Positions 4,330 through 58,320 of a stretch of DNA of 64,000 bases are shown piece by piece. Made by a program: the position numbers and the translations under genes. Below the pieces are notes generated by a model, which saw only the letters and a program-made list of their open reading frames with translations, was not told where the DNA came from and did not search any database. The DNA lies in the NCBI GenBank assembly GCA_951406725.2, contig CATOCA020000002.1, positions 372,001 through 436,000 of the forward strand, written 5' to 3'. Every line of letters starts with the position of its first letter. The stretch's first letter is position 1. The stretch is from Octopus vulgaris (Eukaryota).

Positions 4330-5691
4330 CATGCGTGCGCGAACCGGCGCAAGCGCGTGTGTGCGCGCGCCTGCGAGTGTGCGCGTACGTATGTGTGTGT
4401 GTGGATGTGTGAGTGTGTCTGTGTGTATGTCTGGGTGGCAGTGTGTCCAATGAATGTATGTGAGTATGTGTGTATATATGTGTGTGCATAGATGTATGTC
4501 CGTGTGTGTGTGTGTGTGTGTATGTGTATGAGTGTGTATGTATGTACGTGTGGGTGTGGGGAAGTGTGTGTATGTGCATGTGTGTGCGCGAACATACAGG
4601 TGTGTGAGTGAGTGCGTGTGTGTGTATGTATGTGTGAGTGTGTATGTATGTGTGTGTAGGATGCATGTATGTGTATGGGTGTATGTATGCGTGTGTGTAT
4701 GTATGTATGTGTACGTGCGTGTGTGTGTGTGTATGCGTGTAGGCATGCGCGTGTGCATGCGTGCATGTATGTGCGTATGTGTGTGTGTGTGCATGTGTGT
4801 GGGTATATATGTGTGTGCGTATATGTGTGTGTATGTGCGTACATGTGTGTGTGTATGCATGTGTGTGTGTAGGTGTGTAGGCGTGTGTGTATAGGTGTAT
4901 GTATGTAAGTATGTATGGGTGTGTCCGTGTATGTGTGTATGTATGTGTGTGTATGTAGCTGTGTGGGCGTGTGTATATGTGTGTGTATGTAGGTGTGTGG
5001 GCGTGTGTATATAGGTGTATGTATGTATGTCTGGGTGTGTCCGTGCATGTTTGTGTGTGTGTGTGTATGCATGTGTATGTAGGTGTGTGTGTACGTGTGT
5101 AATGTATGTGTGTATGCGTGTGTATGCGTGCGTGTGTGTATGTAGGTGCGTGTGTATGTGTGTGGGAGTGTAGGTGTGTGTGTGCGTGTGCGTGTTTATG
5201 TTGGTGTGTGCGTATGTGAGTGTGAGTGTATGGGTGTTTGTCATGCATGTGTGTGCGCGTGCAGGTGAGTGTGTGTGTAAGTATGTGTGTGTGTATGTTT
5301 GTGTGAGTGTGTATGTGTGTATGTCTGTGTGTATGTATGTGCGTATAGGAGTATGTAGGTATGTGTGTGTGTATGTATATGGGTGTATGTATATATGTGT
5401 GTGTGTGTGCATGTGTATAAGTATATGCGTGTGTGCGTATGTGTGTGTATGTGTATGTGTGTGTGTTTTTGTATGTGTGTAGGCGTGAGTGTGTAGATGT
5501 ATGTATGTATGGGTGTGTGTCAGTGTGTGTTTGTGTGTGTGTGTAGGTAGATGTGTGTGTCTGAGTGAGGGTATGGCTGTGTAGGTGTGTGTGTGTATGA
5601 ATGTAAGTGTGTGTGTATACAAGTGTAATGTATGTATGTAGGTGTGTGTGTGTGTGTATGTGTACGTGTGTATGTGTGTATATATGTATAC

Positions 5692-5723
<32 letters not shown>

Positions 5724-5785
5724 GTATATATATATATGTATATATATACATGTATACATATATATATATACATATATATATATAC

Positions 5786-5831
<46 letters not shown>

Positions 5832-5840
5832 ATATATACA

Positions 5841-5887
<47 letters not shown>

Positions 5888-5920
5888 ATATATACACTCA
5901 TATATATATATATATATACA
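4330..5920. repeat. Long degenerate (GT)n/(GTAT)n then (TA)n microsatellite
   Basis: Direct inspection. Source of the spurious His/Thr/Tyr-rich ORFs. Confidence 0.95.
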
Positions 5921-5921
5921 T

Positions 5922-6174
5922 GCAATAATAAATCTCTGAACAAGGTAAAGACAGTAACTACACGACAATTTGAAGTATATTTGCCATCTAAATATAGCTA
6001 ACCACTAAGGGTGGATGTTACTGTAGCTTGTAGCCCCAGGAGAACATCTTCTCCAGCTGGCTATTGACACACTTTCTGTGCCCTATCGGTATTTGCAAAG
6101 GGAGGTCATCCTTCCCTCATCAACCTAAATGCAGTTTCTGGGTATTGACCCGTCATCAGCGCACGACAATCACC
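5922..6174 (-). repeat. Partial copy of the 345-nt HHR (retrozyme-like) monomer; HHR lacks its cleavage-site/stem I' strand
   Basis: Reverse complement matches 7950-8220. Contains GGTGATTGTCGTGCG-CTGATGA-C-GGGT-caat-ACCC-A-GAAAC-TGCA, then jumps to TTTAGGTTG (about 14 nt missing). Confidence 0.85.
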
Positions 6175-6314
6175 TTTCTCTTTATTATAGGCACAATGGC
6201 CTGAATGCAGAGGGGACATAACAATACAATACAGGACATGGGGTACATATAATAAAAATACAAAAAGGATGATATGAAATGAAATGGCCTACGAGCCCCA
6301 CAAAGCTCGCAGTT

Positions 6315-7666
6315 TCATTTACAATTACAGTTATACTGTCTGGGGTGTTCGTCCGTAATGTAAACAAGTAATTCATCTGGCTCTGTAACTCCAGGCAAAC
6401 TGTCATATCGAACGTAATGCACTATGGTTACAGTTGTATCTGAAAACAAATCTTTTAATTTATTTACCGTCTCTTTTTCCACTATTGCAGCCTTTATTTG
6501 GTTATCGTATATTCTCGGGTTCAATTTTATTCTCGTTAGATTTTTCATTATTGCTAATTTTTTCTCAATTTCTTTACCTTTTGTGTACAATATTACAGCT
6601 CTGAGATTCTTTCTTTTAGGTCTTCCTCCTTCCTTGCATACTTTCAGACATTCTTCCACTTTTGTTGACCATTTTTCCCATTCCTCCCACCTTGAACCTC
6701 CACTCACTTTAGTTGTTGTATCTCTCCCTTTGTGTATTTGATCCTCTGTCTCATCAGCATGCTCCTTTTTAGTTTTTTTCTTATTTTGGTCTTTGGATGG
6801 TGATTCCACCCGTGTCCGCTTTCTATCCTCTTTTTCTTCTGTTCTTTCCTCTTCTTTCTCCTTCACTAACTCGTCGTCACTTTCCATATCTCCTAAATCC
6901 TCTGTTAAAGCTCTTATTGCTTCCTCCAGTGTTATCTTCTTCACTTGTATTTCTCCTTCAGGACACACATCCTTCATGTGCCCTCTTCTCTTACATAACA
7001 CACCGGAGGTCTCCCCTCGACCACAACTCTCAGTCGTGTCTCGTCGGGGAACACCAACTCCTCCGGGATGATATACAAATCTAGCATGGTTATGTGAACT
7101 AAGGCTTCCACCGCATAACCCCACCAGTTTATTTCATTCGACTTTTCCACCTTAAGTATGTCCACGTTCTCCTTGCAGTTGTAGATTATTGCAGCTACTA
7201 TTCTTTCGGTATCAAGTTCCGGTGGGATTTTGCTTATTCGTATCCTCACCGCTCTTCTTCCACAATAACTAGGGAGTAAAACCCATTTTTCCGATCTCAA
7301 CACTGTCGTTGCGTTCCTTTTCGCTTCATCTTCATTTTCAAAGCGAACATCTACCGTAGCGTATTTTCTACCTCTATTGTAGAAGGTAGTTCTTCATTTT
7401 ATTTCTTGTAGACATTTTTCAATCTCTTCTACTTCTGCTACTTCTATTCTTTTTGAGACCACATTCCATGTTCTGTATGTTATGGTTTTTTTCTCCGCTT
7501 TTTTCACTTCGTCTTCAGGTTGTGTAACCCTCAGACAGTCTCCTTCCTTCTTGAAGCTGTCGTAGTATTTCCTCAGATTTTCCTTGTCGATAATTATTTC
7601 TTTTAACTGTAATTCGTTCGCAGCCAGGCTTTTGCCTGCTGCTCCCACATAAGTTTGGGCTTGCAT
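6315..7666 (-). pseudogene. Tx1/L1 ORF1-like protein (RRM-like + CCHC knuckle + basic/acidic linker + C-terminal domain), copy A
   Basis: ORFs 7394-7702 and 6974-7303 are in one frame separated by an in-frame TGA. A frameshift near 6990 leads to 6315-7124. Motifs: RIRISKIPPEL, VVVEGRPPVC..CKRRGHMKDVCP. About 56% identical to copy B over the first 90 aa (hand count). Confidence 0.75.
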
Positions 7667-7775
7667 ACCCAACAAAGAATTCAACAATTCAACAGGATGC
7701 AACAGTTTTCAACAACAATAATCAACAAAATTCAACTCACAACCGCAAATCCAATTCTTTGGATCCGTCACTGAT

Positions 7776-8310
7776 CTTAGTGGTTAGCCATATTTAGATG
7801 GCAAATTTTACTTCACATTGTCGTGCAGTTACTGTTTATACCTTGTTCAGAGATTTATTATTGCTTGTTTACAAATTTTCAAGATCAGTGACGAAAAGTC
7901 ACTGGAAAAAGGATATATGTATTTGCATTGGGACCCTTCCATCAAAACCGGTGATTGTCGTGTGCTGATGACGGATCAATACCCAGAAACTGCAGTCCGT
8001 GCGTATCACTTAAGTTGACGAGGGAAGGATGACCTCCCTTTGCAAATACTGATAGGGCACAGAAAGTGTGTCAATAGCCAGCTGGAGAAGATGTACTCCT
8101 GGGGTTACAAGCTACAGTAACACCCACCCTTAGTGGTTAGCCATATTAAGATGGCAAATATACTTCACATTGTCATGCAGTTACTGTCTATACCTCGTTC
8201 AGAGATTTATTATTGCTTGTTTACACTTTTTCAAGATCAGTGACACTGGAAATAGGATATATGTATTTGCATTGGGACCCTTCCATCGAAAACCGGTGAT
8301 TGTCGCGCGC
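7776..8310 (+). repeat. ~1.5 tandem copies of a 345-nt HHR-containing monomer
   Basis: CTTAGTGGTTAGCC..GGTGATTGTCG occurs twice; GGTGATTGTCG starts at 7950 and 8295 (period 345). Confidence 0.9.
7951..8009 (+). ncRNA. Type I hammerhead ribozyme
   Basis: GTGAT-tgt-CGTGTG | CTGATGA | c-ggat-caat-accc-a | GAAAC-TGCA-GTC | CGTGCG-t-ATCAC. Intact core, 2-bp helix III with palindromic TGCA loop, bulged helix I. Predicted cleavage after 7997. Confidence 0.85.
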
Positions 8311-8444
8311 ATAGTTGAAGTGTTGCTTTTTGCGGAGTTGGAGTTTATGATATTGTGAGTTGCAGAAATTGTGATTAGAAATTTTATTGTTGAAAGTACT
8401 ATTATTGAATTTTGAAAATTATTTTGTAGCTACCCTTTGAGGGT

Positions 8445-9716
8445 ATGCAAACAACAAGTTATGCTCAGGCAGCAGGCAAAAGCCTGTCGGCCGGCATGTT
8501 GCTGCTGAATGAAGTATTAATTGAGAAGGAAGGTTTGAAGAAATATTTCGAAAATTTCAAGAAGGAGGGTGATTGCTTACGGATCACACCATCCGAGGAA
8601 GACTCAGAAAAAGCGAGGAAAAAGATTATTGTATATAGAACGTGGAGTGTGGCCAACAAGAAAATAGAACTGGCAGGAACAGACGACATTGAGGAATGTC
8701 TTACGAAAATTAAAGACAGATCGACCTTCTACGCAAGAGGAAGGAAGTTCACCACCATGGAGGTGCGGTTTGAAAGTGAGGAGGAGGCCAAGAAACACGC
8801 TACCATGATATTAAGAACAGCTACGTGGGTGCTTCTCCCATCCTATTGTGGAAAATGAGCAACCAAGGTGAAAATAGGAATGGTGCAGCCGGAGTTAGAG
8901 GTAGAGATACTTGTAACATTTATAATTGTAAGGAGGATGTGGACATCCTAAAGGTTGAAAAATTGAGAGACGTCAACTGATACATATTACCCTGCCAGAT
9001 TTGTACAACATTGCAGAAGAGTTAGTGCTCCCTGACTGAGAGTCGTGGTGGAGGGGAGACCACCAATATGTTTTAACTGTAAAAGAATGGGACATATGCA
9101 AGCAAGGTGTCCCCTAAGAGAAGCACAGGCAGAAGAGGAGGAAATGTGCAGTGACGCAGCGAGAACGGAGAAAGAAGACAAAGAGGAAAAGGAAAAAGTT
9201 GAAGAAAAAACGGCAGAAAGAAAGAGAACAAGGGTGGAGTCACCACCAAAAAGCTCAAAGAAAAGTAAAGTAGAAAATGAAGGAAAAGTACAGAGATTCG
9301 AGCCCAGGAACTGAAAACAATGACAATGAGTGAAGAAGGTAAAACCAGAAAAGAGAAATGCGAAGAATGGATGAGGAAAGTGATGGAGAGAGTAAATCAT
9401 GTAAAACAAACAGGATGACCTACGGGAGAGAATGCAAGAAGGTTAATTTTGTATGTAAAAAATATGGAGATTGAAAAAAGATTAACCAAAACAAAAGGAC
9501 TGATACGAGTGAAATTAGAAAACGGCATGTTCGAACCAAGTGCTAGAGCAGTATTAATAGAAAAAGAAAAAAATAGACAAATTGGTAGAGACATTTAAAG
9601 GAAAGATTAAAGTAAGTAAAATAGACGTTCGCTATCACAGCCTGCCCAACGTAATTGGGATGGAGGATGTTATCAAACATATGGATAAGTGGAACAGTTG
9701 CAAAATGTATAAATGA
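8445..9716 (+). pseudogene. Tx1/L1 ORF1-like protein (RRM-like + CCHC), copy B
   Basis: MQTTSYAQAAGKSL..WVLLPSYCGK, then VEGRPPICFNCKRMGHMQARCP (CX2CX4HX4C), ERKRTRVESP and a C-terminal LILYVKNMEIEKRL..IRVKL..VRYHSLP block homologous to copy A. Several stops and frameshifts. Confidence 0.75.
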
Positions 9717-9877
9717 AACTGCGAGCTTGGGGGACTCATAAGCCATTCCATTTCCCATTACACATAACTCATTTTATAATCATTATTTGTTTTATGTACC
9801 CCAAATTTTGTATTGTTTAGTATGTAAATTGTAATGTACTATTTATATTCAGGCTACATGCCTATAATTAAGAGAAA

Positions 9878-10063
9878 GGTGATTGTTGTCCGTGTGTATC
9901 ACTTAGGTTGACGAGGGAAGGATGACCTCCCTTTGCAAATACTGATAGGGCACAGAAAGTGTGTCAATAGCCAGCTGGAGAAGATGTTCTCCTGGGGCTA
10001 CAAGCTACAGTAACGTCCACCCTTAGTGGTAAGCCATATTTAGATGGCAAATATACTTCACAT
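9878..10063 (+). repeat. Partial copy of the 345-nt monomer, HHR core deleted
   Basis: GGTGATTGT then TGTCCGTGTGTATCACTTAGGTTGACGAGGG..ATATACTTCACAT matches 7950-8170 minus the CTGATGA..GAAACTGCA segment. Confidence 0.88.
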
Positions 10064-10137
10064 ACATATATATGCTCATATATATACACACACACATATA
10101 TATACACATACACACACACACACACACATATATATAC

Positions 10138-10190
<53 letters not shown>

Positions 10191-10344
10191 TATGTATATA
10201 CACATATATGTGGGAAAAAATAAGTTCAAAAGATAGCTATTCAAACTTTTTGAGAGGTCCTAAAAGAGAAAGAATGATTTCTAATAAAGATTCATCATAT
10301 TCACAAAAAACACTCAAAGTAAGTAATAAGAATATGGAAACAGT

Positions 10345-18725: not shown

Positions 18726-19020
18726 TGGAGTAAAGATTGTTTGTCAACATAACATGGCAGTCCTGGTTTAGGATGAATATTCCTGTAATTTAGCCCCGGG
18801 AGACATCGTCTCCAGCTGGCTATATGACACGATCTGTGTCTTTATATTTTTGAACAAGGGGATCTAGCACCCCACTCAGCTCAAAACAATATCTGTGTAC
18901 CGCAATTTCCAGGTTATTTCCCTTCATCAGCACAGAATAATTGTTCCTCGGGTTAAATTACAGCAACATTCGTCCTTAACCAGGACTGCCATGTTATGTT
19001 GGCAAACAATCTTTACTCCA
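18726..19020 (-). mobile_element. Short HHR-containing element with ~75-bp terminal inversion, related to the 345-nt monomer
   Basis: 18726-18800 is inverted versus 18945-19020. Minus-strand HHR at 18892-18936: TCTGTG-CTGATGA-aggg-aaataa-cctg-GAAAT-tgcg-GTA-CACAGA. Shares TAGCCAGCTGGAGA..TCTCC.GGGGCTA with the monomer. Confidence 0.8.
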
Positions 19021-38100: not shown

Positions 38101-38257
38101 TACTAAGGTAAAAATTGTGATATACTCTTGTAAAAATAAATGTTGTTAAACAATGTTTGGGGTTGGTTTTAATACAGGACACCACATAGTCTAAATATCA
38201 AATCAATATGTCAAGACACATCAAACCAAACCACACAAACAATATATATATATATTA

Positions 38258-41200
38258 AGATTGTTGAGATGCTTGAGCGGAGACGTGTAGATTTGTGCTG
38301 CATCCAAGAAGCAAGGTGGGAAGGAGGTTCCGCTAGGTTCCTCACAGGCAAAGAACACAGGTACAAGATTTTCTGGGCAGGGAACACTAATGGGATCGGG
38401 GGCGTGGGTATACTTCTTGCGGAGAAATGGGTAGATAAAGTAATTGAGGTAGTCAGAGTATGTGACAGAGTACTTAAGATTAGATTAGTGCTTCACCATA
38501 GGCCAGCTACTATTATCTTGGCCTATGCCCCTCAGTTGGGGCTACAAGAGGGGCAGAAAGACCAATTCTATGACACCCTATTGCAGACTACCTCGTTGAC
38601 GAATGACAGAGACCTTTTTGTGGCTGGTGATTTCAATGGACATGTTGGACAATGTGCAGGGGGCTTCCATGGCATACATGGAGGCTATGGTTTTGGTTCC
38701 CACAATGAGGAGGGAACCAGACTGCTGGAGTTCTGCAATGCAAATGATCTTATGGTTTGCAATACCAACTTCAGGAAACCCGCCCGTCACTTAGTCACCT
38801 ATCATTCTGGCAGACACACTTGCCAAATTGACTATATCCTCGCCAGAAAAAGAGAAAGAGGGCTGCTTATAAATGCCAAAACCATCCCAGGCGAAGAATG
38901 TAACCCTCAACATAGATTAGTTGTTAGCAACTTCAGGATCAGGGCTGAATGGATGCCCAGAAGAAGACCAGTCTGGAGGAGAAGGGTCTGGAAACTTAAA
39001 GATCCTGCAAATGAGCAGAGATTTAGAAACGTATTACTCGAAGCCTCTGATGAAATAGAAGGGGGTATAGCATCACATAATGTGGAAGACAACTGGAGGT
39101 TTCTACAGGACAACCTGCTGAGAGTCACTGACCAGATCTGTGGCTGGTGCAAAGTCCCCACTTGACCCAAGGTAATGTGGTGGTGAAACAATGTGGTTGA
39201 CAGGCCTATTAGACAAAAGAAACAGGCTTGGAAGGACTGGAAGAATAGAGGTAGCAGGGAATTGTATCAGACTGCCAGAAGGGAAGCTAGGAGACAGGTT
39301 TATTTAGCCAGAGGGGAAGCAGATAAGAAAAAATTTGCCAATGTTCTGCACTGTGAGGACCAACGACTTGAGGTATTTCGTTTTGCAAGACAATGTGTGA
39401 GAGAACATCGTTATGTGGTAGGAGAGAAATGCGTTCGCATGGATGATGGTTCACTTGCGCTAAATGAGGATGCAAAGAGAGAGGCTTGGAGACGACACTA
39501 TGAAAGGTTGCTGAATAAGGAAAATGAATGGGATAAAGAGAGTCTGCCGAATGTCGACCCAACAGAGGGCCCAGCTATCCGAGTTGACAGTTCTTTGGTA
39601 GTTATGGCAATTAGAAGCATGAAGACAGGGAAAGCCCCAGGCCCATCAGGAATTACTGCAGAGATGCTCAAAATATCTGGCAGTGTTGGCTATAGCCTAG
39701 TCACCCGTATAGTTAACCAGATGATACACGAAGGAGTCATACCCAATGACTGGTGTAGCAGCATAATAGTCAACTGCTACAAAGGTAAAGGTGATGCCCT
39801 AGATACAAATAATTACAGAAGTATCAAGCTGTTGGATCAGGTAATGAAAGTAACGGAGAGGGTCATAGCCCAATTGATTAGGGAGAGAGTCAACTTAGAC
39901 GAGATGCAGTTTGGTTTCGTGCCAGGGAAAAGCACCACTGATGCAATATTTCTGGTGAGACAGCTGCAGGAGAAATACCTAGCCAAAGATAAGCCCCTGT
40001 ACCTGGCTTTCGTTGACATGGAGAAAGCCTTCGACAGGGTCCCCCAATCCCCTATCTGGTGGTCAATGAGGAAACTAGGGATAGATGAATGGCTAGTGAG
40101 AGCTGTGCAAGCCATGTACAGGGACGCTGTAAGTAAGGTAAGGGTTGGCAACGTTTACACTGAAGAATTCAAGGTAGAGGTTGGGGTCCACCAGGGTTCA
40201 GTCCTCAGTCCCCTCCTATTTATCATAGTCCTCCAGGCAATTACGGAGGAATTCAAGACAGGATGCCCCTGGGAGCTCCTCTATGCTGACGACCTTGCTC
40301 TAATTGCTAAGTCACTATCAGAACTGGAGGAGAAGTTTCAGGTGTGGAAGGAAGGATTAAAATTGAAGGGCCTTAGAGTCAACCTAGCTAAAACCAAAGT
40401 CCTAATAAGTAGGAAGGTAGACGAACCACAAACGCCTTCAGGTAGATGGCCCTGCTCGATCTGTAGAAAAGGCGTCGATAGAAACTCTATAAGATGTACC
40501 CAGTGTAAGCTATGGACACATAAGAGGTGCAGCAATGTCAAAGGAAGGCTAACTGGGAAGATAGTTTTTGTATGTGGCAGATGCTCAGGACCAATAAACA
40601 CTGAAAATCTGCAGAAAACAACTTCCGTCACTTTCCGGGGGGAAAAACTAGAAGTAGTTGATAGCTTCTGTTACCTAGGTGACCAAGTCAGTAGCAGGGG
40701 TGGGTGTGCTGAAAGTGTAACTGCTGGAGTAAGAATAGCCTGGGCAAAGTTTAGGGAGCTCTTACCTCTGCTGGTGACTAAAGGCCTCTCGCTCAGAGTA
40801 AGAGGCAGACTGTATGATGCTTGTGTACGAACAGCCTTGCTACATGGCAGTGAAACATGGGCCGTGACTGCTGAGGACATGCATAAGCTCACGAGGAATG
40901 AAGCCAGTATGCTCCGATGGATGTGTAATGTCAGTGTACACACTCGACAGTGTAAGTACCTTGAGAGAAAAGTTGGACCTAAGAAGCATCAGCTATGGTG
41001 TGCAAGAGAGATGATTGCGCTGGTATGGTCATGTGGCAAGAATGGATGAAGATAAGTGTGTGAAAAAGTGCCAATCCCTAGCAGTTGAGGGAACCCATGG
41101 AAGAGGTAGACCCAGGAAAACCTGGGACGAGGTGGTGAAGCATGACCATCGAACTTTAGGCCTCACTGAGGCAATGACTAGAGACCGAGACCTTTGGAAA

Positions 41201-43016: not shown

Positions 43017-45660
43017 TGTAGACACCAGGATGTGCTAGGGAATGCAATGCAAAGTGTAGTGTGGTGGAGGAAAAAGACAACATAAAAAGAAACATATGGG
43101 AGAAAGAAATACAAAGACCTTACCTGTTGACCTTGGTGGGATGAGCGATAATTGTCAAGAAATAGATACGTCCTTGCATGCTGCCGTCTCTTCCCGAACT
43201 GCCCGCACTTGTTTCCTGCCCACGCATGCCCTGTGGCTGTGCCACAGGCCCCTGCAGTCTTCACTTGCATCTGCCTCATCTGCAATCCTCTCCACCAACA
43301 CCACATAGCTCATCACAGCCCATAACACCACTAACACCACACACACCCCTGATCTACAGATCATTCAACCGGCTTTCCCACTCACTCCTCACTCCCGAAC
43401 TCACACTTTAACTGGTTTCATAATCAGCCAACCAGGGAGGAGGGTGCCACTGTCTGTGGTCACCGTGCAACCCTGGGACTGGCCTGAGTTCCTGGCATGC
43501 TGCTGCTGGCTTCATCATCTTGCCTACTGATACTGTCTTCATCTTCTTGCCTACTGTTGCTGTCTTCATCTTCTTGCCCACTGCTGCTGGTTCCATCCTC
43601 TGAGGCATTGACAATCTTCCGCACATCCAAAACGAGGTGTGGAATACCATCGACTTTCCCCATCATGATGTACACCATGTGTTTGGGGGTTTTACCCAAA
43701 CTTCTTCCCCTACCTGCACGAAGGCATGCTCTTCTGTCCCGGGTCGCATCGATGCAATACACGGATGCCTCCACTCGTACCTGAATATTGCTCTGTGTGA
43801 CACCAACTCCTCAGCCTGTCCTGACCTGGGTGACATATTGTACCAGAATACGGCCTCATTTGGTGAAATGTGGCCGCTCTCTGCCATGGTCTTGATGGTA
43901 CGATGGTACCATTTCTACTTGGCCGGTATGCTGCCATGAAGAAGTGGTTGACCTGCCATTTATCAAGCATTTCTTTCAGCACCTCCGAGCGAAATGCAGT
44001 GCCATTATCCAGAAGCAGCTCATCCATGGGGCCTCGTTCCAGGAATATCTCATTTAGTACTTTCACGATTTCCTCTGCAGTCCCCGTCTTCATCTCCCTC
44101 CATATGACCAACCGCCCCAATCCGCAGTCAACCATTGAGAGGTATGTCCCCTGCCAGTAGTGTGTTATGTCCACCTCCAGTCATTTCCAGTTGTGGTCCA
44201 CTTGAATACTTCCTGCCTCATGTGCACCCAGAGCAGGGTCAATGGACTGACACCTGTCACAGCTGCTAACCACTCTCTGCATGCTTCATCTTGTTACATT
44301 GGAGTCGACTTTCCTGTCCCTCCCCATGGTATGCAATCTCCTCAACTTTGAGCCACTCAGACAGCATACTGCAGCCACAGCCTGCTCAGCATCCTCTGGA
44401 AACTGCAACCAGGCTCGCTTTACCCTGGTCAGGATGTCTGCCCTGTTCTTCTCAGAAAGTACAAAGATCACGCTCAGCCTCAGATCGAACTCAGCGGTTA
44501 GTTCATGCAGTATCCCCAATCAACGCTTTACCAACATCACTGCGGCCCCTTTGGTTTGCACCCTCCACACATTGCTGTCACCCAACCAAGTACAGTGGCT
44601 GAATCAGTCCTGATTTTTATGGTGCACAGCCCCCACTTCAAGGCTAGGTTCACTCCCTTCAACACAGCATCCAACTCTGTCACATTGATATGATTGCAGT
44701 CATCTGTGTCCCTGAGCCAGGCTGCATCTTCCACCATGACACCTCCCACTTCCAAGATAACCCCTATTGCTATGCTACTGGCGTCACACTATACAATCCT
44801 GCTCTTTGCTTTGGGAACATACCAACTGCCCTCGCTGGATCTTCTGCTCTCACTCTGACCAAGACTTCCTGTATCATGTCGGTCGTCTTCTCCCCCACTC
44901 TATCGTTCCACTTTGCTCCTTCGGCTTGTCTCTTGATGAAGTTACATGCTGTCCAAAGCCATCCTGCAATCGGGTAGTGTCCCACCAGCTTCCCACACAC
45001 CGAGAACAGTTCCCGTCTACTCATGCTGATGCCCAGTTCGGGAATCTCGTTTCCTCGCCAGAACACCAATGCGCCGGCCTTGTCTCTCCATAGCTTGAGG
45101 CCCAGTGCAGCGCCTCCCTCCATTGCTCCTGGTGGTTTGGCGATCACTCCAAAACTCTTCAGGTGGCCTATGACCTCCATTGCTGGCATTACGGTTTCAT
45201 CCACCAGAATGTCATCAATGTACGAATTGGTGGCCCTTTTTACTCTGTCCACCTTTCCCAGGATGGCCTTGAGAATTGTCGCCATAATCTTTGGTGCTGA
45301 ATTTAGCCCGAACCCCAACCTGGTCAGGCAGTATGTCCGGCGCTTATACCTGACAAGCTGATACTTCCACAGTCTCTCAGTTACATGCACTTTCATGCCG
45401 ACTTCAAATCGACGATTGTGGAGGCCCCTGTCATCTGCCTCCACTCTCGCAAGGTAACCCTGCAGACATCTGTGGCCTCGCCGCCCGTATGACATATGTG
45501 GTCATTCAACTCTCGGAAGTCAAGCACCAGTAGCAAATGACCTCAGGCTTGGGTGACTTGCAGTCTCGTACCATGTGCAGGCCCTGACACCAGAAACACT
45601 GTCCTTTGAATGGTCGCACATGTTCTTTGTTTGACCCCTCTCCGCTACTCCTTGCTCATC
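43017..45660 (-). mobile_element. LTR retroelement pol remnant (RT-RNaseH-integrase) with 3' LTR 43017-43358
   Basis: RLGFGLNSAP and YIDD; RNase H HINVTEL..TDS..NRADILTR; integrase MDITH..DNGTAF. LTR ends TGTAGA..TCTACA. Confidence 0.8.
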
Positions 45661-46470: not shown

Positions 46471-48730
46471 ATAAAAACGGTAAGACAACAAAAGAATGAA
46501 AGAGACCTCGATATTATGTAAATAGAGGAATTTATCTGTAAATGTAATATGTGACAATTATTCGGTAGCCATGATAAAACTCTGAGATTCGGATGCCGAG
46601 GTGGAAATCCATGCCGCCATCTCTTCAGTTATCCGGCCATCGGAAAAAATTCTATGAAAAATGACCGTTATACAAAATTACTGTGTGATTAACCATTATT
46701 AAGACAAAAGAGCTATTCGAATGACCGCTAAGTGAGGGGAGGGAGTAAAAATAAGGGGGTAAAAAGGTTCATAGTATTCGCGTAAGCGTGCATGTTCATA
46801 TCTACACATGTGCGCCCGCACACCCACGTGCATGAGCCTAAAACTATACTCATCCACCCTCACTTGAAACGTACACAACCTCACCCACACCATTCACCAA
46901 ATATATATATATACAAACACACACACATGCACACCAAAAAGGTTTCATACACATGTCTATATACGTACAAACACAAGAAAACACAGGGCTAAGGGTAACA
47001 ATACAGAAAAAGGTTAAACCACATCTATATATGCACACACACACGCGCACACAAAAAAGTTCATATACACATGAAAAAACAGAGCTAAAGGCAAAAATAT
47101 AAGAAAATGTGCAAAATAAATGAGTAAAACACGTCTGTATACTCACATACTTGCAAGCACACACACACGCACACAACCACATGCGCACACAAAGGATTCC
47201 ATATACACGTCTATATATGCACAAGGAAAATGCAGAGTGGAAGGTAGAATACAGAAAAATTATGTGTAAAAAATATATAAGCAATATCTCTATAAATATG
47301 TAAAAAATATAAATAAAAATATATAAGAAATATAAGTAAAAGATATAAAGAGATAAAAAGCTTGAACGTGGACACAATACCGAAGGCAAGTTCTATCTGT
47401 AATCTCGGGGGGACCAAAAACGTAACAAATATCTGGCCACATATGGGCATGAACCTAAAAGTTCAGTTCTTGAATTCAGACATGTAGCAGGGTCTAAGCT
47501 GCTTTTCCAAATGAGCCATCTTTCCATATCACATAGACCGCACTTTCCACTGCCGTTGGTGTAGGGCTTACACTTGGTTAAGATCTTCCAATGGATATTG
47601 TAATTGACACCTTTATCTTTTAAGTACCATATATGACTGGATAATTTGGTCATTTTCCTTTTTTCCCAGTGCCTGAAGCTCAAGGTGTGATTATTGAACC
47701 TGGCCTTGAAATTACCCTCTGTAAGGCCCATGTATTTCTTCGTCAAAACTGTCTTTAGTGGATATAGAGTCCACAGTAGCTTCATAAATGATGGTCTCGG
47801 ACATGCAAGCTCCATTTAGCGGGCACAAATTTTTCTCTCTGCAAGAACAGCTGGTTTCGTATTGTGGTTTTTGTGTGTTGTGTGTGATTATATTTTTAAA
47901 ATTGGTAGTTGAGCTGAAACTGATTTTTAAGTTGTGTCTATTGAAGAGCTTTCTGTAAGTATGGTTGACTGGAAAATGTCTATCTACCAGTGCTAAGAAA
48001 TACTTGCCTATATTGAAGGTCACCTCGGGTGAGTAGGGGTGTGTGAACCAGATGGTGTTCCTATTCCTACGTTTCCTCTTCTTTATCATTGGCCTGGTGG
48101 CAGGTGTATACGTTATTTCTTCAGTAAAACCATTATCTTTTAGAGCCTTATTATATACTGGGGCAACGCTATTAAAAATGTCCTTATCGGAGGAGAGGCT
48201 AGAAATTCTCTTGCTAATGTTTTCAACTAAATTTTTAAACACTATAGGGGGATGGTAGGAACCTACATTAATATAACTACGTCTATCATTGGGTTTCCTA
48301 TAAGGCTTATAAATGTTCTTATTTAGATTTAAGGACACATCTAAGAAATTGACAACCATCAGGCTGGTGTCTGTAGTTATACTAAGTCCGAGGGTTTTAA
48401 TCAAATGGATAATGTCCTTCCTAAACCGATCCTGTGCTGGTCCATTGGTATTTGTAGTTAAGGTGAGGGCATCATCTTTGTAAATGGTGAAGTATACATC
48501 AGGAAAGGTTCCGCCAACGTATCGAGTAGGAATAATCCAATAAGATCACATATGCCTGCTCCATCATATGACCCCATGCTCACATCGAAAGCACCTCTGT
48601 ACCGATACAGAGGGTGATTCATTTACATTGCATACATTTACTTTTCTATGCAGCATTTCTTTGCCGACCTATATTGGATCTTTTGCATCGAGGTATGGTG
48701 GAAAATTATCAGTTTACACAATAGAAAAAG
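46470..48730 (-). mobile_element. Penelope-like element (RT + GIY-YIG) remnant with pLTR
   Basis: MGSYDGAGICDLIG, YKDD, VNFLDVSLNL, YRKPN, CSCREKNLCPLNGAC..IIYEA, YMGLTEGNFKARFNNH, CGLCDME and LNSRTEL. Confidence 0.9.
46573..46633 (-). ncRNA. Degenerate hammerhead in Penelope pLTR
   Basis: GATAA-CTGAAGA-GATG..CATC-cGAA(T)C-tcaga-GTT-TTATC; 5-bp helix I, one core substitution. Confidence 0.55.
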
Positions 48731-48944: not shown

Positions 48945-51779
48945 ATTTCTTTATTGATCACAAGGGGCCAACATAGAGGGGACAAACACACATGCGAGGG
49001 CAATTAACAAATGAAAAATGAATGAAAATGGATTATTACAATGAAGGTGAGACGGCCACCCTGGCCTCGCTCCAGGATGGTTACGTGATTTCAATTATTT
49101 CAAACAATCTTATAAATGTTCTTTTAGAATGTTCATTGTTAGTTCTCTGAAAAATGAAATCTCAACAAATTTTTACTCACCACTTAATATCGTTTTTAAT
49201 GTCGTCATAATCTACCAGTCTACCACTGGGGTGCAGGGTTCAATACTCACCTCAGACCCCAGTGGATTGAAATGCTTCCTTCAAAGTTCTGTATTTTTCT
49301 TCATTTATTAAGATGCATTTTATGTCTTTATCATATCCTTCTGAAAGTTTCACTCTAATAATCTTTTTCATTTTCATTATTTTCCTCTCCACTTTTTGGT
49401 TAGTAAATAGATTTTGTTTTTGTGTACGTCTTGTGTGTCTGTGTATCTGTGCCCTTATGCTTCTGTAGCTCTGTGATATTGTAGCAATATCGTTACACTC
49501 ATTGCTATCTTCACTGTTTGAGAAGAGTATTAAGAATAATCTCGTTCGAGATTACAAACATCTTCGGCTAGTTTAACATTGTTGTAAACACTAATTCGAT
49601 TGGCTGACACGTGGTCTCTACTACGTTCGCACCGCTGGTTGTCACGTGACGCGACGCGATTTGCCTCCGCTTATTTTCGCGCCATTGTTCCAAGCAGCCA
49701 ATCACAGCTTTCCATTTCTGAAGTTCGTTTTGAGCCTCATAAACCTTATATAAAGAAGGGTTCTCAGACAAATATTCGTCTTTGGTTCAAGTCCTTCTCA
49801 AGGCGAACCTCTGACCACAGAGTTCGTCTTTGGTTCTAGTTCTTTTCAGAACGGACCTCTGACCACACAGAGCATACTCGACCATGTTCCAGTTCGAAAG
49901 GCAGGCGACCACCATTATATCAAGAGAAAAATAACCAAGCAGAATATATGATGAAGACGCAGCAAAAACCAAGCGACGGACACAACTCATCGCCAAACAT
50001 CGAAGATTTAATTTGTACACAAGATGACCACAGATTCAACTCTAGCGGTTAGGTGAAAATCTCACCACGGCAAAAACGGCTACAGTTAACACATCTGGAA
50101 GTATATTCATATCAAGAGAAAGATAAACACAACAAGTGATTCAATTAATCTCAACTACGAGACGCAACATCTTGATATGGAACTCTTACACTCCGTGTAC
50201 CTCATAAACGGTAAATCAATTATCTGTCTTGAGTTCTAGTTCTTCTAAGAACTACCTTAAGCCATCTGCTACTACCTGTTGCTGGGCTGATACCAACAAC
50301 ATGAACTGTGAACCAAATTCCATTGTTATTCCTCTGGTCAGTACCTTTTATGTCTCACGAACACACAGACACAAAAACATGCTAACACTTACAAACTTCC
50401 AACCAACATGATTGTAAAATATGTAAAATGAATAATGTATATAATTCAAAAAGAAATCTTGTTGTCATTCCACTTGTTTTCTATTGCCGCTGTATGTATT
50501 ATATGGTCTGTAATATTTCATTGAGAATGGGATCGCGTGCGATTGTATTCCATATACGATACGACTGCATGTGATCCTATTTTTATAATATCATGTGTCT
50601 GTATGTCTATATTCTTATGTGTCTGTGTGTTTATGTGTCTGCGCCTCTGGATGTTTGTGTATCTGTAAGTCTGTGTTTACTTGGTGTTTCTGTTCTACTT
50701 GTGGTATTTTTCTATGTGATCCTAAGAGTGTATTGCTTCTGCTTGTTGTTGTTGATGGGTCTGTTTTCTCCTGTGTTTTTTGTTTTTTCTGTTGTAATTC
50801 CTTTTTAGGCAGTGGATTCCTCCTCTCTCTCTCTTCCATGTTTTAACTGCTATGAACTTTGTGTTCTGTTCTGTGTCTTGGGTCTTCATCTCCACTTTCA
50901 TTTTGCCTTCTTCTGCTTCTGTTTCTGTAACTTCCTTTGTTAGTTTAGGATGCCTTCTTCTAATGTGTTTCTTCTCTCCACACTCATGACAAGTTGGTGG
51001 CCTCCCCTCCAACATTACTTCAAGTTTATCCTCATTTGGCAGCTCCACTGTTTCTGGAATTGCTCCGTATTCCATCGGATTTGCTGTAAAATACATCTCC
51101 AACCATACCCCCAATAATTTATTTGTTGAGTCTGGGTTATCTGTAATACTTTCACATCCTCGTTTTCTCTGTTCTCTCCTACAGGGAAAACTGCTGCCAT
51201 TATCCACTTGGGATCAATTCCAGGTGGAATCCTGCCTACCCTGATCCTAGTAACGTGTTTACCTAGGAGGTAGGCAGGAGTGTCCATTTTCCCCTGGAAA
51301 GCACCTCAGTGGAGTGTCTTCTTGCCTCCTCTTCAGAGACAAATTAAATGCCACTGATGCGAACCTTCTTCCTCTTGTATAGAATGTTATTCTTTCCTTC
51401 AACTTTTCCAGACACTCATCCACCGCCTCCTGCATTGCATTCTCGAAACTCTTGCTTCTTTTCAAAAACGGTCTGTAAGTTATTACTCTACTTACCATTT
51501 TTTCCTGTCTTCTTCTGGGGGGGGGTCAACTTTATGTTTGATCCCCCTCTTTATCATCCCTTGATATTTTGTGAGCAGCTCCACATTACAATATACTTCA
51601 CACTGTTCTAGCATATCTGGAATGACTGCACTCTGACTTCCCGTCACCACCACGTAACTCTTCATTTAGATAAAAAATCCAAAAGCTAATTCTTCAATTA
51701 GATAAAAAGTCTTCATTTAGATAAAAAAAAAACTCTTCGTTTAGATAAAGATTCCAAAAGCTAACAAATATCGCAAATA
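48945..51779 (-). mobile_element. ORF1-only Tx1/L1-like element (copy C) with 19-bp TSD, interrupted by a solo LTR
   Basis: TSD AATACTGCTGGCAGTACTG at 48926-48944 and 51780-51798. The ORF remnant runs 51665 to ~49200 (RITFYTRGRRF, RIRVGRIPPGID, NYWGYG, LEGRPPTCHECGEKKH, KIIRVKL..IKCILI). 3' end GTCCCCTCT..GGCCCCTTGTG..AATAAAGAAAT. Confidence 0.8.
49480..50586 (+). mobile_element. Probable solo LTR
   Basis: Interrupts the copy C ORF, starts TGTAG and is flanked by ATAT. Contains ATTGG/CCAAT boxes, GTCACGTGAC and TATATAAAG (~49748). Confidence 0.55.
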
Positions 51780-52461
51780 AATACTGCTGGCAGTACTGTG
51801 CAAGCAGTCGATAAGAGCTTGCCACAGCTGACAAAGTAAAGTATTGATTTTTTCCAGCTGGGTGTGTGTCAAATTTTTCGGTGGCTCAAGCCAAATCCTA
51901 AGCAAATTGAGAGTAGTCTCTATATGTTGGGGGTGCAGAATTTCAAGGAAAGATTATAAGAAAATGTGTCCTAAGTCAAAGAAATCACACATGTCAAATT
52001 TGATGTGAAATTCAGTTGAAAATTGTAGGAGAAGTGGTTCACACAACACACACACCCAGACAGACAACTTTTAATATATAAGATCAAACATATACTGTTG
52101 CATAGACATGGTGGGTTCAAATCTTAGGCGAATTGAGAGTAGTCTATATATGTTAGGGTATGGAATTTCAAGGAAAAAATTATGAGAAAATATGTCCTAA
52201 GTCGAAGAGAGCACATGTGTCAAATTTGGTGAAATTCAGTTGAAAATTGTAAGAGTAGAAGTGGTTTACTCAACATACAGACAGGCAGACAACTTGCCTT
52301 TTAATATATAAGATAGATAGATAGATATGTATGTGTGTAATCATGCATGCATGCATTTATGTATATATGTATGTTTGTATGTATATATAAATAAATGTAT
52401 GTGTATGTGTATCTATCTATCTATCTATCTATCAATATATATATATATATATATATGTGAA

Positions 52462-56653: not shown

Positions 56654-58320
56654 ATAAAGGCTATAGATGAGATGAAAACAAACTCAGCTACTGGCCCCGA
56701 TGGATTCCCGGCAATCCTTCTAAAAGTATGTAAGAGAGTCCTAGCAAGACCACTGCAGTCTCTCTTTCAGAGCTTCCTTGCAACTGGCAAACTTCCAAGA
56801 AAACTGAAGGAAGGTAAAATATGCCCTATTCATAAAGGAGGTAGCAGAGCGGAGGCCAAGAACTAAAGAACTATCTCTCTGACCTCACACATCAGCAAGG
56901 TCATGGAACGAATAGTCAGAAGGAAACTAATCATCTTCCTTGAAGAAAATGACTTGCTGCCTGACACCCAACATGGTTTCCGACCAGGAAGAAGCTGCTT
57001 AACTCAGCTCCTACAACTCTATGACTGGGTGCTGAAACGACTGCTCAACCACACAAATGTGGAAGTGATATATCTCGACTTTGCAAAGGCCTTTGATAAA
57101 GTCGATCATGGAATGATATGTCACAAACTGCGTGATCTCAACATAGTTGGAATACTGGGAGAATGGCTTCATGACTTTCTGAAGGATAGAAGTCAGGTGG
57201 TAGTAGCCAATGGGGCCACTTCCATTAACACACAAATAGTGAGCGGTGTTCCGCAGGGCACTGTTTTGGGACCACTACTGTTCATAATGGCCCTTTCAGA
57301 CATGCCCTCAGCCACGCAAGGAGCCACGATCACAAGTTATGCAGATGATACAAAAGTTTCACAGGCAATACAGAACCCTGAAGACACTAAGCACCTGCAA
57401 TTTGAGCTGGACAAAATATACAAGTGGGCTGAAAAGATTAGCATGCAGTTCAATGCTGAAACGTTTCAAGCTTTATGCTATCAGCATGCAAAACTGAATG
57501 CAATACCCAATGAATACACTGGACCTGGAGGGATTGCAATCCCAGAGGCACAATCAGTGCGTGACCTGGGTATTCACATGAGTGATGACACGACATTTCA
57601 TGTACATGTTACTAAACTGGCAATGAAATGTAGACGGCTGGCCGGATGGATTCTCAGAACCTTTAGAACAAGAGAACAAGAAACCATGATGGTCCTCTGG
57701 AGGACACTTGTCCTAAGCCACTTTGACTATTGCTCTCAGCATTGGTCACCATCCAGTGTCAAGTTGATCACAGAACTTGAGGCGATTCAATGTAGCTACA
57801 CGAAGAAGATAGCCTCTGTGCAGAATATAAGCTACTGGGAAAGACTCAAGAGATTAAAACTCTATTCCTTGGAGCGTAGGCGAGAAAGATATGCCATAAT
57901 ATACATCTGGAAGATCCTGGAGGGACTTGTCCCAAACTTTGGCATCGAGAGTTACACAAATGCCAGAACTGGGCGCCACTGCATGGTGCCTAGGGCTCCA
58001 AATTTGCCATGAAGATGTAGGTCAAGATACTGTGATAGCCTGGGCTTCCGAGGCTCACAGCTCTTCAATATCCTCCCGAAGAACCTAATACCTGCATGCG
58101 GTGGATGCAGATGTCTTTAAAATGAAACTGGATCTCTTCTTGTCAGGTATCCCAGATGAACCAACTTCACGGCAGGAAGTACAGATGAGCTGCATCGAAC
58201 TCTCTCATGCACCAAATGGCAGTTGCTAAAAAGCATTCGTGAAGTAAAACCATGTAGCAACACCAAATGGCGGTGCCCCAGCATGGCCACAGCTCGTAAG
58301 CTGAAACTAGAATCAATCAT
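56654..58320 (+). mobile_element. 5'-truncated CR1/L2-group LINE (RT)
   Basis: ATGPDG, QHGFR, DFAKAFDKVDH, SGVPQGTVLGPLLF, YADD, RDLGI and YSLERRRER; AATC tail. Confidence 0.92.

Follow-up and report, generated by a model that had tools for sequence, protein, structure and literature searches.

ORF1-only LINE derivatives at hammerhead retrozymes of Octopus vulgaris and a related autonomous lineage

The window analyzed here is a stretch of 64,000 nucleotides (nt) of the Octopus vulgaris genome (contig CATOCA020000002.1, positions 372,001 to 436,000). Within it, two elements, termed A and B, lie head-to-head inside a single hammerhead retrozyme locus with TA/CA microsatellites at both borders. 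We consider it very probable that A and B are derivatives of a long interspersed nuclear element (LINE) of the L1/Tx1 group that carry only the first open reading frame (ORF1), and that they likely inserted independently just 5' of hammerhead helix I, relying on target-primed reverse transcription and on the enzymes of an autonomous relative with a preference for this DNA site. This reading is based on the junctions, the target duplications, the use of several host subfamilies, the presence of autonomous families and the uncoupling of element variants from flank variants.

A first-pass annotation of the sequence had offered two alternatives, an ORF1-only Tx1-like family that targets the ribozyme helix, or a stable hammerhead-ORF-hammerhead composite moved by Penelope-type machinery. 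The former is supported and was extended by the autonomous lineage, locally matching duplications, several host subfamilies and tandem stacks. The latter is not supported as a rule: element and flank variants are uncoupled, which favors targeted insertion over a stable protein-coding retrozyme, and only one locus (L003) looks co-mobilized.

Two ORF1-only elements and their retrozyme host

The coordinates and head-to-head orientation of A and B given by the first-pass annotation proved correct (Table 1). Over their whole length, the two elements share 62% nucleotide identity, and the first 90 amino acids of their products agree at 50 positions (56%), as had been estimated. Given this level of nucleotide identity, we reject one local duplication as the origin of both, which the annotation itself had named as a result that would speak against it. 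Both 3' ends carry an AATAAA-type tail of the form GCCTATAAT(A/T)AAGAGAAA and run, as had been noted, straight into GGTGATTGT of the helix I 5' strand. A tblastn search with an autonomous ORF2 (P0017) as query found no reverse transcriptase (RT) or endonuclease match within 5922-10063, again in line with the earlier description. B is preceded by GGTGATTGTCGCGCGC at 8295-8310, which had been read as a target-site duplication; the sequence is there, and part of it may be element-borne, since in another retrozyme family (L008, L012) the local duplication is likewise followed by TGTCACGTGC. No such duplication precedes A: compared with L082, the first ~25 nt of the element are missing, having been lost together with the upstream target where the inversion joins.

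Both elements had been described as protein-coding. The ORF of A starts at 7666 and is broken by a stop at 7394 and a frameshift near 6995, and the ORF of B (8445-9674) contains stops and frameshifts; an intact copy of 431 amino acids is present in L003. The hammerhead 3' of A lacks 15 nt, including the GUC triplet and the helix I 3' strand, and the one 3' of B lacks ~36 nt, including the whole catalytic core. Because these downstream ribozymes are deleted, excision of the RNA by flanking hammerheads, as initially suggested, is impossible for the window copies.

Table 1 Features of the retrozyme locus that holds elements A and B.
Feature	Position	Strand	Remarks
(TA)n microsatellite, left end of retrozyme insertion	5679..5918	none	
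Retrozyme arm 3' of A	5922..6174	minus	monomer positions 1 to ~265; 93% to full monomer
Element A, ORF1-only (HAL1-like), subfamily A	6175..7765	minus	tail AATAAAGAGAAA
Inversion junction	7766..7778	minus	short monomer piece (~positions 285-297) in A's orientation; read from sequence
Partial retrozyme monomer	7776..7949	plus	positions 180-345
Complete 345-nt retrozyme monomer	7950..8294	plus	
Type I hammerhead (predicted)	7950..8009	plus	helix I 5' strand 7950-7964; CTGATGA 7965-7971; then stem II and GAA; palindromic stem III ACTGCAGT 7989-7996; predicted cleavage after C7997; helix I 3' strand 7998-8009
5' copy of duplicated target (helix I 5' strand)	8295..8310	plus	last bases may be element-borne
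Element B, ORF1-only (HAL1-like), subfamily B	8311..9877	plus	tail AATTAAGAGAAA
Retrozyme arm 3' of B	9878..10063	plus	reaches monomer position 221; catalytic core deleted
(CA/TA)n microsatellite, right end	10059..10209	none	

The intact L003 product matches zf-CCHC (E 1.3e-4, a CCHC knuckle), and a structure model of ORF1 residues 1-245 (pLDDT 81, 12 sequences) has tandem-RRM proteins as its best matches (E 1e-4); the VIA structural comparison gave a best Z of 8.2, a middling score. Domain match and model thus support the RRM-like and CCHC assignment of the first-pass annotation and a type I ORF1 protein (ORF1p) with two predicted RRM folds and a CCHC knuckle, an architecture consistent with Tx1 (PMC5203782). 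The domain search of ORF1 returned no Transposase_22 match. Between A and B, the nonsynonymous rate (dN) is 0.22 and the synonymous rate (dS) 2.3 or saturated, and dN/dS within subfamilies is ~0.2-0.3; judging from these rates, ORF1 of the A/B lineage is under purifying selection. Homologs of the ORF were found only in Octopus bimaculoides, with proteins 53% and 63% identical.

Concerning the host, the 345-nt repeat contains a type I hammerhead core at 7965-7997. The earlier identification of this ribozyme is backed by the core and by comparative pairing, and does not extend to intact ribozymes 3' of A and B. Stem III is palindromic in 66 of 75 distinct cores from fetched loci (forms ACTGCAGT, ACTCGAGT, ACATGT, ACTAGT and ACATGCATGT), its outer two pairs being fixed by the search pattern. 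Proximal helix I forms 6 base pairs (bp) in 48 of the 75 cores, as compared to 506 of 2000 random cross-pairings of helix I strands, and the partners change together between subfamilies in a compensatory manner. The mean duplex energy of helix I was -15.5 kcal/mol versus -9.7 kcal/mol for shuffles. When 11 hammerheads were aligned with MAFFT, the variable stem III received no gaps, and pairs were for this reason not counted on that alignment. A gathering-threshold Rfam scan detected no hammerhead in the window or in 31 loci, with one U2 matched, and single-strand folding of the window hammerhead was not significant (z 0.57). A palindromic stem III is a mark of dimer-type hammerheads, and its presence suggests this type here. 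Dimeric hammerhead motifs are mentioned for retrozymes (PMC7229834).

Genome-wide, the monomer yielded 3910 first-look candidates, 40 of which were scored; it occurs in short tandems, some with inverted arms. A strict core pattern matched 1263 times (control, 0). Of these cores, ~94% are empty (81 junctions versus 1263 cores, obtained with different patterns). As a monomer within the range of 170-400 nt, arranged in tandem and bearing a type I hammerhead, the host repeat fits, by its sequence, the retrozymes without long terminal repeats (non-LTR retrozymes) of the literature. Contigs of four sequencing runs presumed to be RNA cover A and B, some without differences, and contain no joint at the cleavage site, which counts neither way. 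Beside retrozyme monomers at (TA)n, loci L015 and L045 carry 5'-truncated RT/GIY-YIG frames that we take, from their motifs, to be Penelope-type; a 5'-truncated reading frame of presumably the same type lies in the window at 47400-48550 on the minus strand. These frames are candidate mobilizers of the retrozyme. In L029 (G000:C23:42842945-42843736), the first 42 nt of the hammerhead recur ~16 times in tandem, in units of 50 nt.

Insertion sites and autonomous families

To locate further copies in the 2.8-Gb genome, we searched with the tail GCCTATAATAAAGAGA, which returned 153 rows (control, 0). The 100 matches listed correspond to 75 places (C1-C12), 70 of which were fetched; the other 5 were read by eye as off-target. 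At 46 of these 75 listed places, the tail borders on a hammerhead (36 places) or on the helix I strand of one (10 places). In the fetched set, 36 copies lead into a hammerhead monomer. Another 10 meet a helix I strand, behind which there is another element or a break, and 24 lead into other sequence. Within 3.6 kb upstream of the tail, 40 of the 70 hold a sense ORF1 and none a sense ORF2.

The junction pattern was present at 24 places (control, 0), where the upstream DNA belongs to subfamily A, subfamily B, a third ORF1-only group or, in one case, an ORF2 end. A tail-to-core pattern gave 81 matches versus 1 in the control, and all on-target copies, in this search and the others, lie in the sense orientation of the ribozyme, which the tail-to-core pattern itself requires. 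Among 34 scored copies, tail and core are separated by 17-23 nt in 31 and by 26-35 nt in 3. Joining at the same nucleotide, as noted by the first-pass annotation, is accordingly true of A and B, while the distance varies genome-wide. A first flank library was contaminated with (TA)n and was replaced by a later analysis of flanks.

Duplications of at least 15 nt flank 26 of the 70 fetched copies, compared to 4 of 70 for a control stretch, and were seen on and off target and with full and truncated copies. They include the off-target 5'-truncated copies L141, L146, L152, L167, L179 and L191 and the truncated on-target copies L168 and L193. The target duplications measure 16-23 nt and match the local site, with hosts drawn from several retrozyme subfamilies. 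Subfamily A alone occupies the hosts mono1, GGCA and GGAC, whose differing helix I sequences are each duplicated locally. In L082, three different elements form a tandem stack, C-A-B, at one site. Element B of the window is 95.0% identical to a B copy in a different host subfamily (flank 89%) versus 92.9-93.5% to B copies in its own host subfamily.

An autonomous family was reached via its ORF2 end (2246 first-look candidates). Its ORF2 contains Exo_endo_phos (an apurinic/apyrimidinic-type endonuclease, APE), RVT_1 and zf-RVT domains, and a separate ORF1 lies upstream, which is 25-31% identical to that of B across the N-terminal domains. An intact ORF2 of 1129 amino acids (P0017) belongs to a family termed X. 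The best PDB match of the autonomous ORF2 is human L1 ORF2p (E 4e-40), and its nearest named relative is from Argonauta. By eye, 18 of 30 autonomous-family loci end at a hammerhead or helix I strand and 6 elsewhere, with 6 left unassigned. A candidate for the autonomous partner, for which the first-pass annotation had advised looking, is an older branch (L085, L086, L088, L091) that terminates in exactly the same AATAAAGAGAAA as A and B and keeps their register.

Family X is young, its copies being ~95-97% identical. Its tails lie at hammerhead sites of several subfamilies in 22 of 23 cases, two of them in the window's own subfamily, where one full-length copy has a duplication. In each of the 6 copies examined, all of them full length, the two duplicates show the same local variant, a private one included; only 1 of the 6 has an intact core upstream that points the same way. 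None of 20 informative LINE sites shows the X1/X4/X5 split, which divides the flanks at 4 sites downstream and 1 upstream. The main host subfamily of X has many empty copies (299 rows including duplicates). Nine alike junctions had raised the idea that group X is a fused composite; this was rejected in view of the many free host copies and the uncoupled LINE and flank variants.

Of the 12 tails that represent family U, the sister of X, 7 lie at hammerheads of two subfamilies and 5 at U2 small nuclear RNA (snRNA) genes, at their 5' end; all 12 sites begin with TTYATCG. At U2, it duplicates AAATTTATCGCTTCTCGGCC (~20 nt) and inserts a few bases upstream of U2 nucleotide 1, leaving a complete U2 sequence downstream. 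The copies are 0.15% apart in the ORF2 3' region. At L134 (G000:C3:20.79-20.83 Mb) and C23:43315637, family U stands just upstream of U2 snRNA genes, with one copy in tandem. In L103 and L111-L114 (G000:C9, C29), tandem LINE ends are joined to ORF1-bearing elements through TTACTCCAGACT, a piece of GGCC-family helix I, with no surrounding retrozyme.

Proposed mechanism and alternatives

We propose that the retrozyme locus existed before the elements. By analogy with Tx1, the autonomous ORF2 would nick the bottom strand close to where helix I begins and, 16-23 nt further downstream, the top strand, and the ORF1-only elements would borrow this endonuclease and RT in trans. The common, short and A-rich AATAAAGAGAAA tail may prime without a poly(A) tract. 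ORF1p would act in cis, which would account for the purifying selection on ORF1. The best partner for A, B and C would be the older family with the terminal AATAAAGAGAAA and the same register, and the younger families X and U would cut 8-10 nt further upstream, at TTYRTCG. Since family U inserts at the same TTYATCG in front of U2, the endonuclease likely recognizes its target by a short DNA motif; in Tx1 elements, the endonuclease is described as mainly setting the target choice (PMC4494074). As a multicopy and apparently dispensable repeat, the retrozyme likely serves as a safe harbour.

Several observations weigh against this reading. Among the matches listed, 29 of 75 tail copies lie away from hammerheads, and the specificity of the ORF1-only elements is therefore a preference. 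By eye, ~14 of the 36 on-target copies have neither an upstream retrozyme nor a duplication, which direct insertion does not predict. About two thirds of the off-target copies also have no duplication, and since these lack duplications even more often, the missing ones may reflect later decay on and off target. Helix I sequences vary widely among hosts, no strict motif was found for the A/B register, and the 3' untranslated regions of A and B resemble those of the proposed partner only loosely beyond the last 12 nt. Different elements occupy the two arms of one locus (window, L115, L176, L181, L201) more frequently than expected from an occupancy of ~6%. Finally, both arms of L003 contain B together with the monomer downstream of it, at 98%, and a 3' flank variant common to L003 and L004 is missing from their 5' copies.

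One alternative overlaps with the preferred reading and differs only in the determinant: the element would be co-transcribed with its host, self-cleavage would set one or both RNA ends, and read-through target sequence would pair with the nicked DNA, as for R2 in ribosomal DNA (rDNA). That the hosts have a common catalytic core and not a common helix I, that every on-target copy lies in the ribozyme's sense orientation, that the examined X copies are all full length and that target sequence was captured at some 5' ends (L008, L012, L103) would all agree with targeting through ribozyme RNA, and co-transcription with the target can strengthen specificity (Kojima 2015, PMC4494074). It is nevertheless unlikely in our judgment, as family U goes equally to the 5' ends of U2, where there is no ribozyme, the flanks upstream do not track the LINE, and only 1 of 6 family X copies has an intact core upstream in the same direction; AATAAA at the element end would also suggest ordinary polyadenylation. 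A stable protein-coding retrozyme, the composite RNA of which would be excised, circularized and reinserted as a unit by Penelope-type machinery, is considerably less probable. It draws on L003, where the 3' end of B and the monomer after it recur in an inverted, 5'-truncated copy of Penelope type that is 98% identical over 676 nt and lacks a duplication at its inner junction, on the on-target copies lacking an upstream retrozyme, and on loci that end at monomer position ~220 or ~265 beside (TA)n, like free retrozymes. Against it stand the occurrence of one element subfamily in unrelated hosts with local duplications, the duplications of off-target copies, the uncoupled element and flank variants, the ~94% empty cores, the dead downstream ribozymes of both window copies and the fact that the arms of other head-to-head pairs (L115, L176, L181, L201) are only 79-93% alike. 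An inverted-arm pattern like that of L003 has been described for Penelope-like insertions, so entire loaded retrozymes can probably be moved from time to time; passive carriage as an occasional event is plausible, and a dedicated family was not seen.

We give almost no credence to an absence of targeting, whether random insertions persisted preferentially within retrozymes or were multiplied through gene conversion or segmental duplication. Some places did arise by duplication nearby, four of them on C17 and several on C29 and C10, but orientation and register are fixed across many chromosomes and many independent junction forms, and dispersed duplications match their local sites. By simple arithmetic, 10,000 sites of 40 nt make up ~1e-4 of the genome, versus the 61% observed. 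Building on targeted insertion, the LINE lineage might be a hyperparasite of ribozyme replicons that settles in front of the hammerhead so that retrozyme transcription and self-cleavage supply or release its RNA, TTYATCG allows the shift between U2 and retrozyme, and a loaded retrozyme is occasionally moved by Penelope machinery as a protein-coding unit (L003). We offer this picture as speculation that is unlikely in its entirety.

Relation to known elements

Families X, U and P combine an ORF2 with APE, RT and a C-terminal zinc-binding domain with a separate upstream ORF1, which assigns the autonomous lineage to the L1/Tx1 group; the provisional Tx1 placement within it is by domains and behavior, and the matches contained no named Tx1 reference. 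Target preference has been assumed where more than 20% of flanks lie in one repeat (PMC4494074). The corresponding values here are 46/75 for the listed tails, 22/23 for X and 12/12 for U, the last divided between two targets. Known Tx1 elements target other transposons, satellites of unspecified kinds and snRNA genes, with Tx1 in Tx1D, Tx1-Mar in Mariner-N4_AMi, Tx1-9_AMi in Harbinger, and Kibi and Koshi among the target-specific LINEs (PMC4494074). According to the same source, they resemble the octopus elements in the APE-type endonuclease, the RRM and CCHC domains of ORF1, site preference within another repeat, duplications of ~16-20 nt, tandem stacking at a regenerated site and non-autonomous passengers at the same site. 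The octopus target differs in being the DNA just 5' of a retrozyme hammerhead.

Keno and Utopia also insert at U2 genes, sometimes in tandem, like family U. Their common 3' flank starts at U2 nucleotide 39 (PMC4640811), whereas family U lies upstream of nucleotide 1 and also uses hammerhead retrozymes. HAL1 elements are likewise non-autonomous L1-group derivatives that encode only ORF1p, described for mammals (PMC5753468). A and B show HAL1-like traits, having only an ORF1 that is homologous to LINE ORF1, duplications and 5' truncation; as cephalopod elements with a type I ORF1, several old subfamilies, a target preference and no Transposase_22 match, they are analogous to the mammalian Repbase families and not members of them. 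Like the host repeat, the metazoan non-LTR retrozymes and Penelope pLTR derivatives (PMC7229834, bioRxiv 10.64898/2026.07.22.740005, bioRxiv 10.1101/2021.04.23.441226) are non-coding, have monomers of ~350 nt that carry a type I hammerhead and stand in short tandems, and show 5' arms in inverted orientation and flanking microsatellites. Those of octopus differ as a LINE target, a nesting that does not appear in the accessible text of these three sources. A retrozyme in which an ORF and both ribozyme flanks are inherited as a unit was not observed, apart from L003.

R2 in 28S rDNA is comparable as a site-specific insertion into a multicopy unit that, as in octopus, is probably transcribed. It differs by its restriction-like endonuclease and its own HDV-like ribozyme, where the octopus elements would hypothetically borrow that of the host. 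Co-transcription of R2 with 28S rDNA is cited in PMC4494074. For Octopus vulgaris, 13 active L1-Tx1 families have been reported, and the words "ribozyme", "nested" and "target" are absent from the accessible main text of that report (PMC13282606). Our literature search, which left Repbase and most subscription papers outside its range, found neither a LINE aimed at hammerhead repeats nor an ORF1-only passenger of this kind, nor a family with both U2 and retrozyme targets. Tx1-type transposon targeting and HAL1 elements are already known; to judge from this search, the hammerhead-retrozyme target and a HAL1-like derivative directed to it appear to be new.

With these elements, ribozyme retroelements join the targets of site-specific LINEs, and three parasites appear nested: Penelope-type machinery, the retrozyme, and a LINE with its ORF1-only passengers. 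In family U, two unrelated targets have a short motif in common, and its copies are nearly identical, so a target change of an APE endonuclease becomes directly testable with sister X as contrast. An intact ORF2 is present (P0017), and interest in the enzymes of site-specific LINEs extends to targeted gene insertion. The HAL1-like lineage, with ORF1 selected across saturated synonymous divergence, provides a test case for the role of ORF1p in cis.

Further loci with related elements were noted. The same tail recurs at non-ribozyme targets, namely GGAGGTCATCCGAACGTGCGA (L014, L018, L156), CCTCTTTTTCTCCAACTCGACACC (L144, L179) and GCGTCGAGTAGAGCG (L184, L186, L187), with no Rfam match in those loci that were scanned; these are possibly other repeats used as secondary targets. 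L005/L077 (G000:C12:44.58 Mb) is a recombinant with another target, combining a B-like body (85%) with other 5' and 3' ends and a duplicated site TCATTCGAAATTTGTCC after another element's tail. In L194 (G000:C12:45.26 Mb), an ORF1 element with an inverted ORF2 3' piece inside has a 28-nt duplication at a hammerhead site. The window itself contains another, distant ORF1-only element at 48950-51800 (minus strand, 27% to P0001, tail AATAAAGAAA), which is interrupted by ~1 kb of other sequence and has a ~19-nt duplication, CAGTACTGCCAGCAGTATT, at a non-ribozyme site. A degraded retrozyme-like fragment lies at 18770-18830, and three unrelated RT-bearing repeats occupy 38173-41046, 44773-45501 and 56867-58009.

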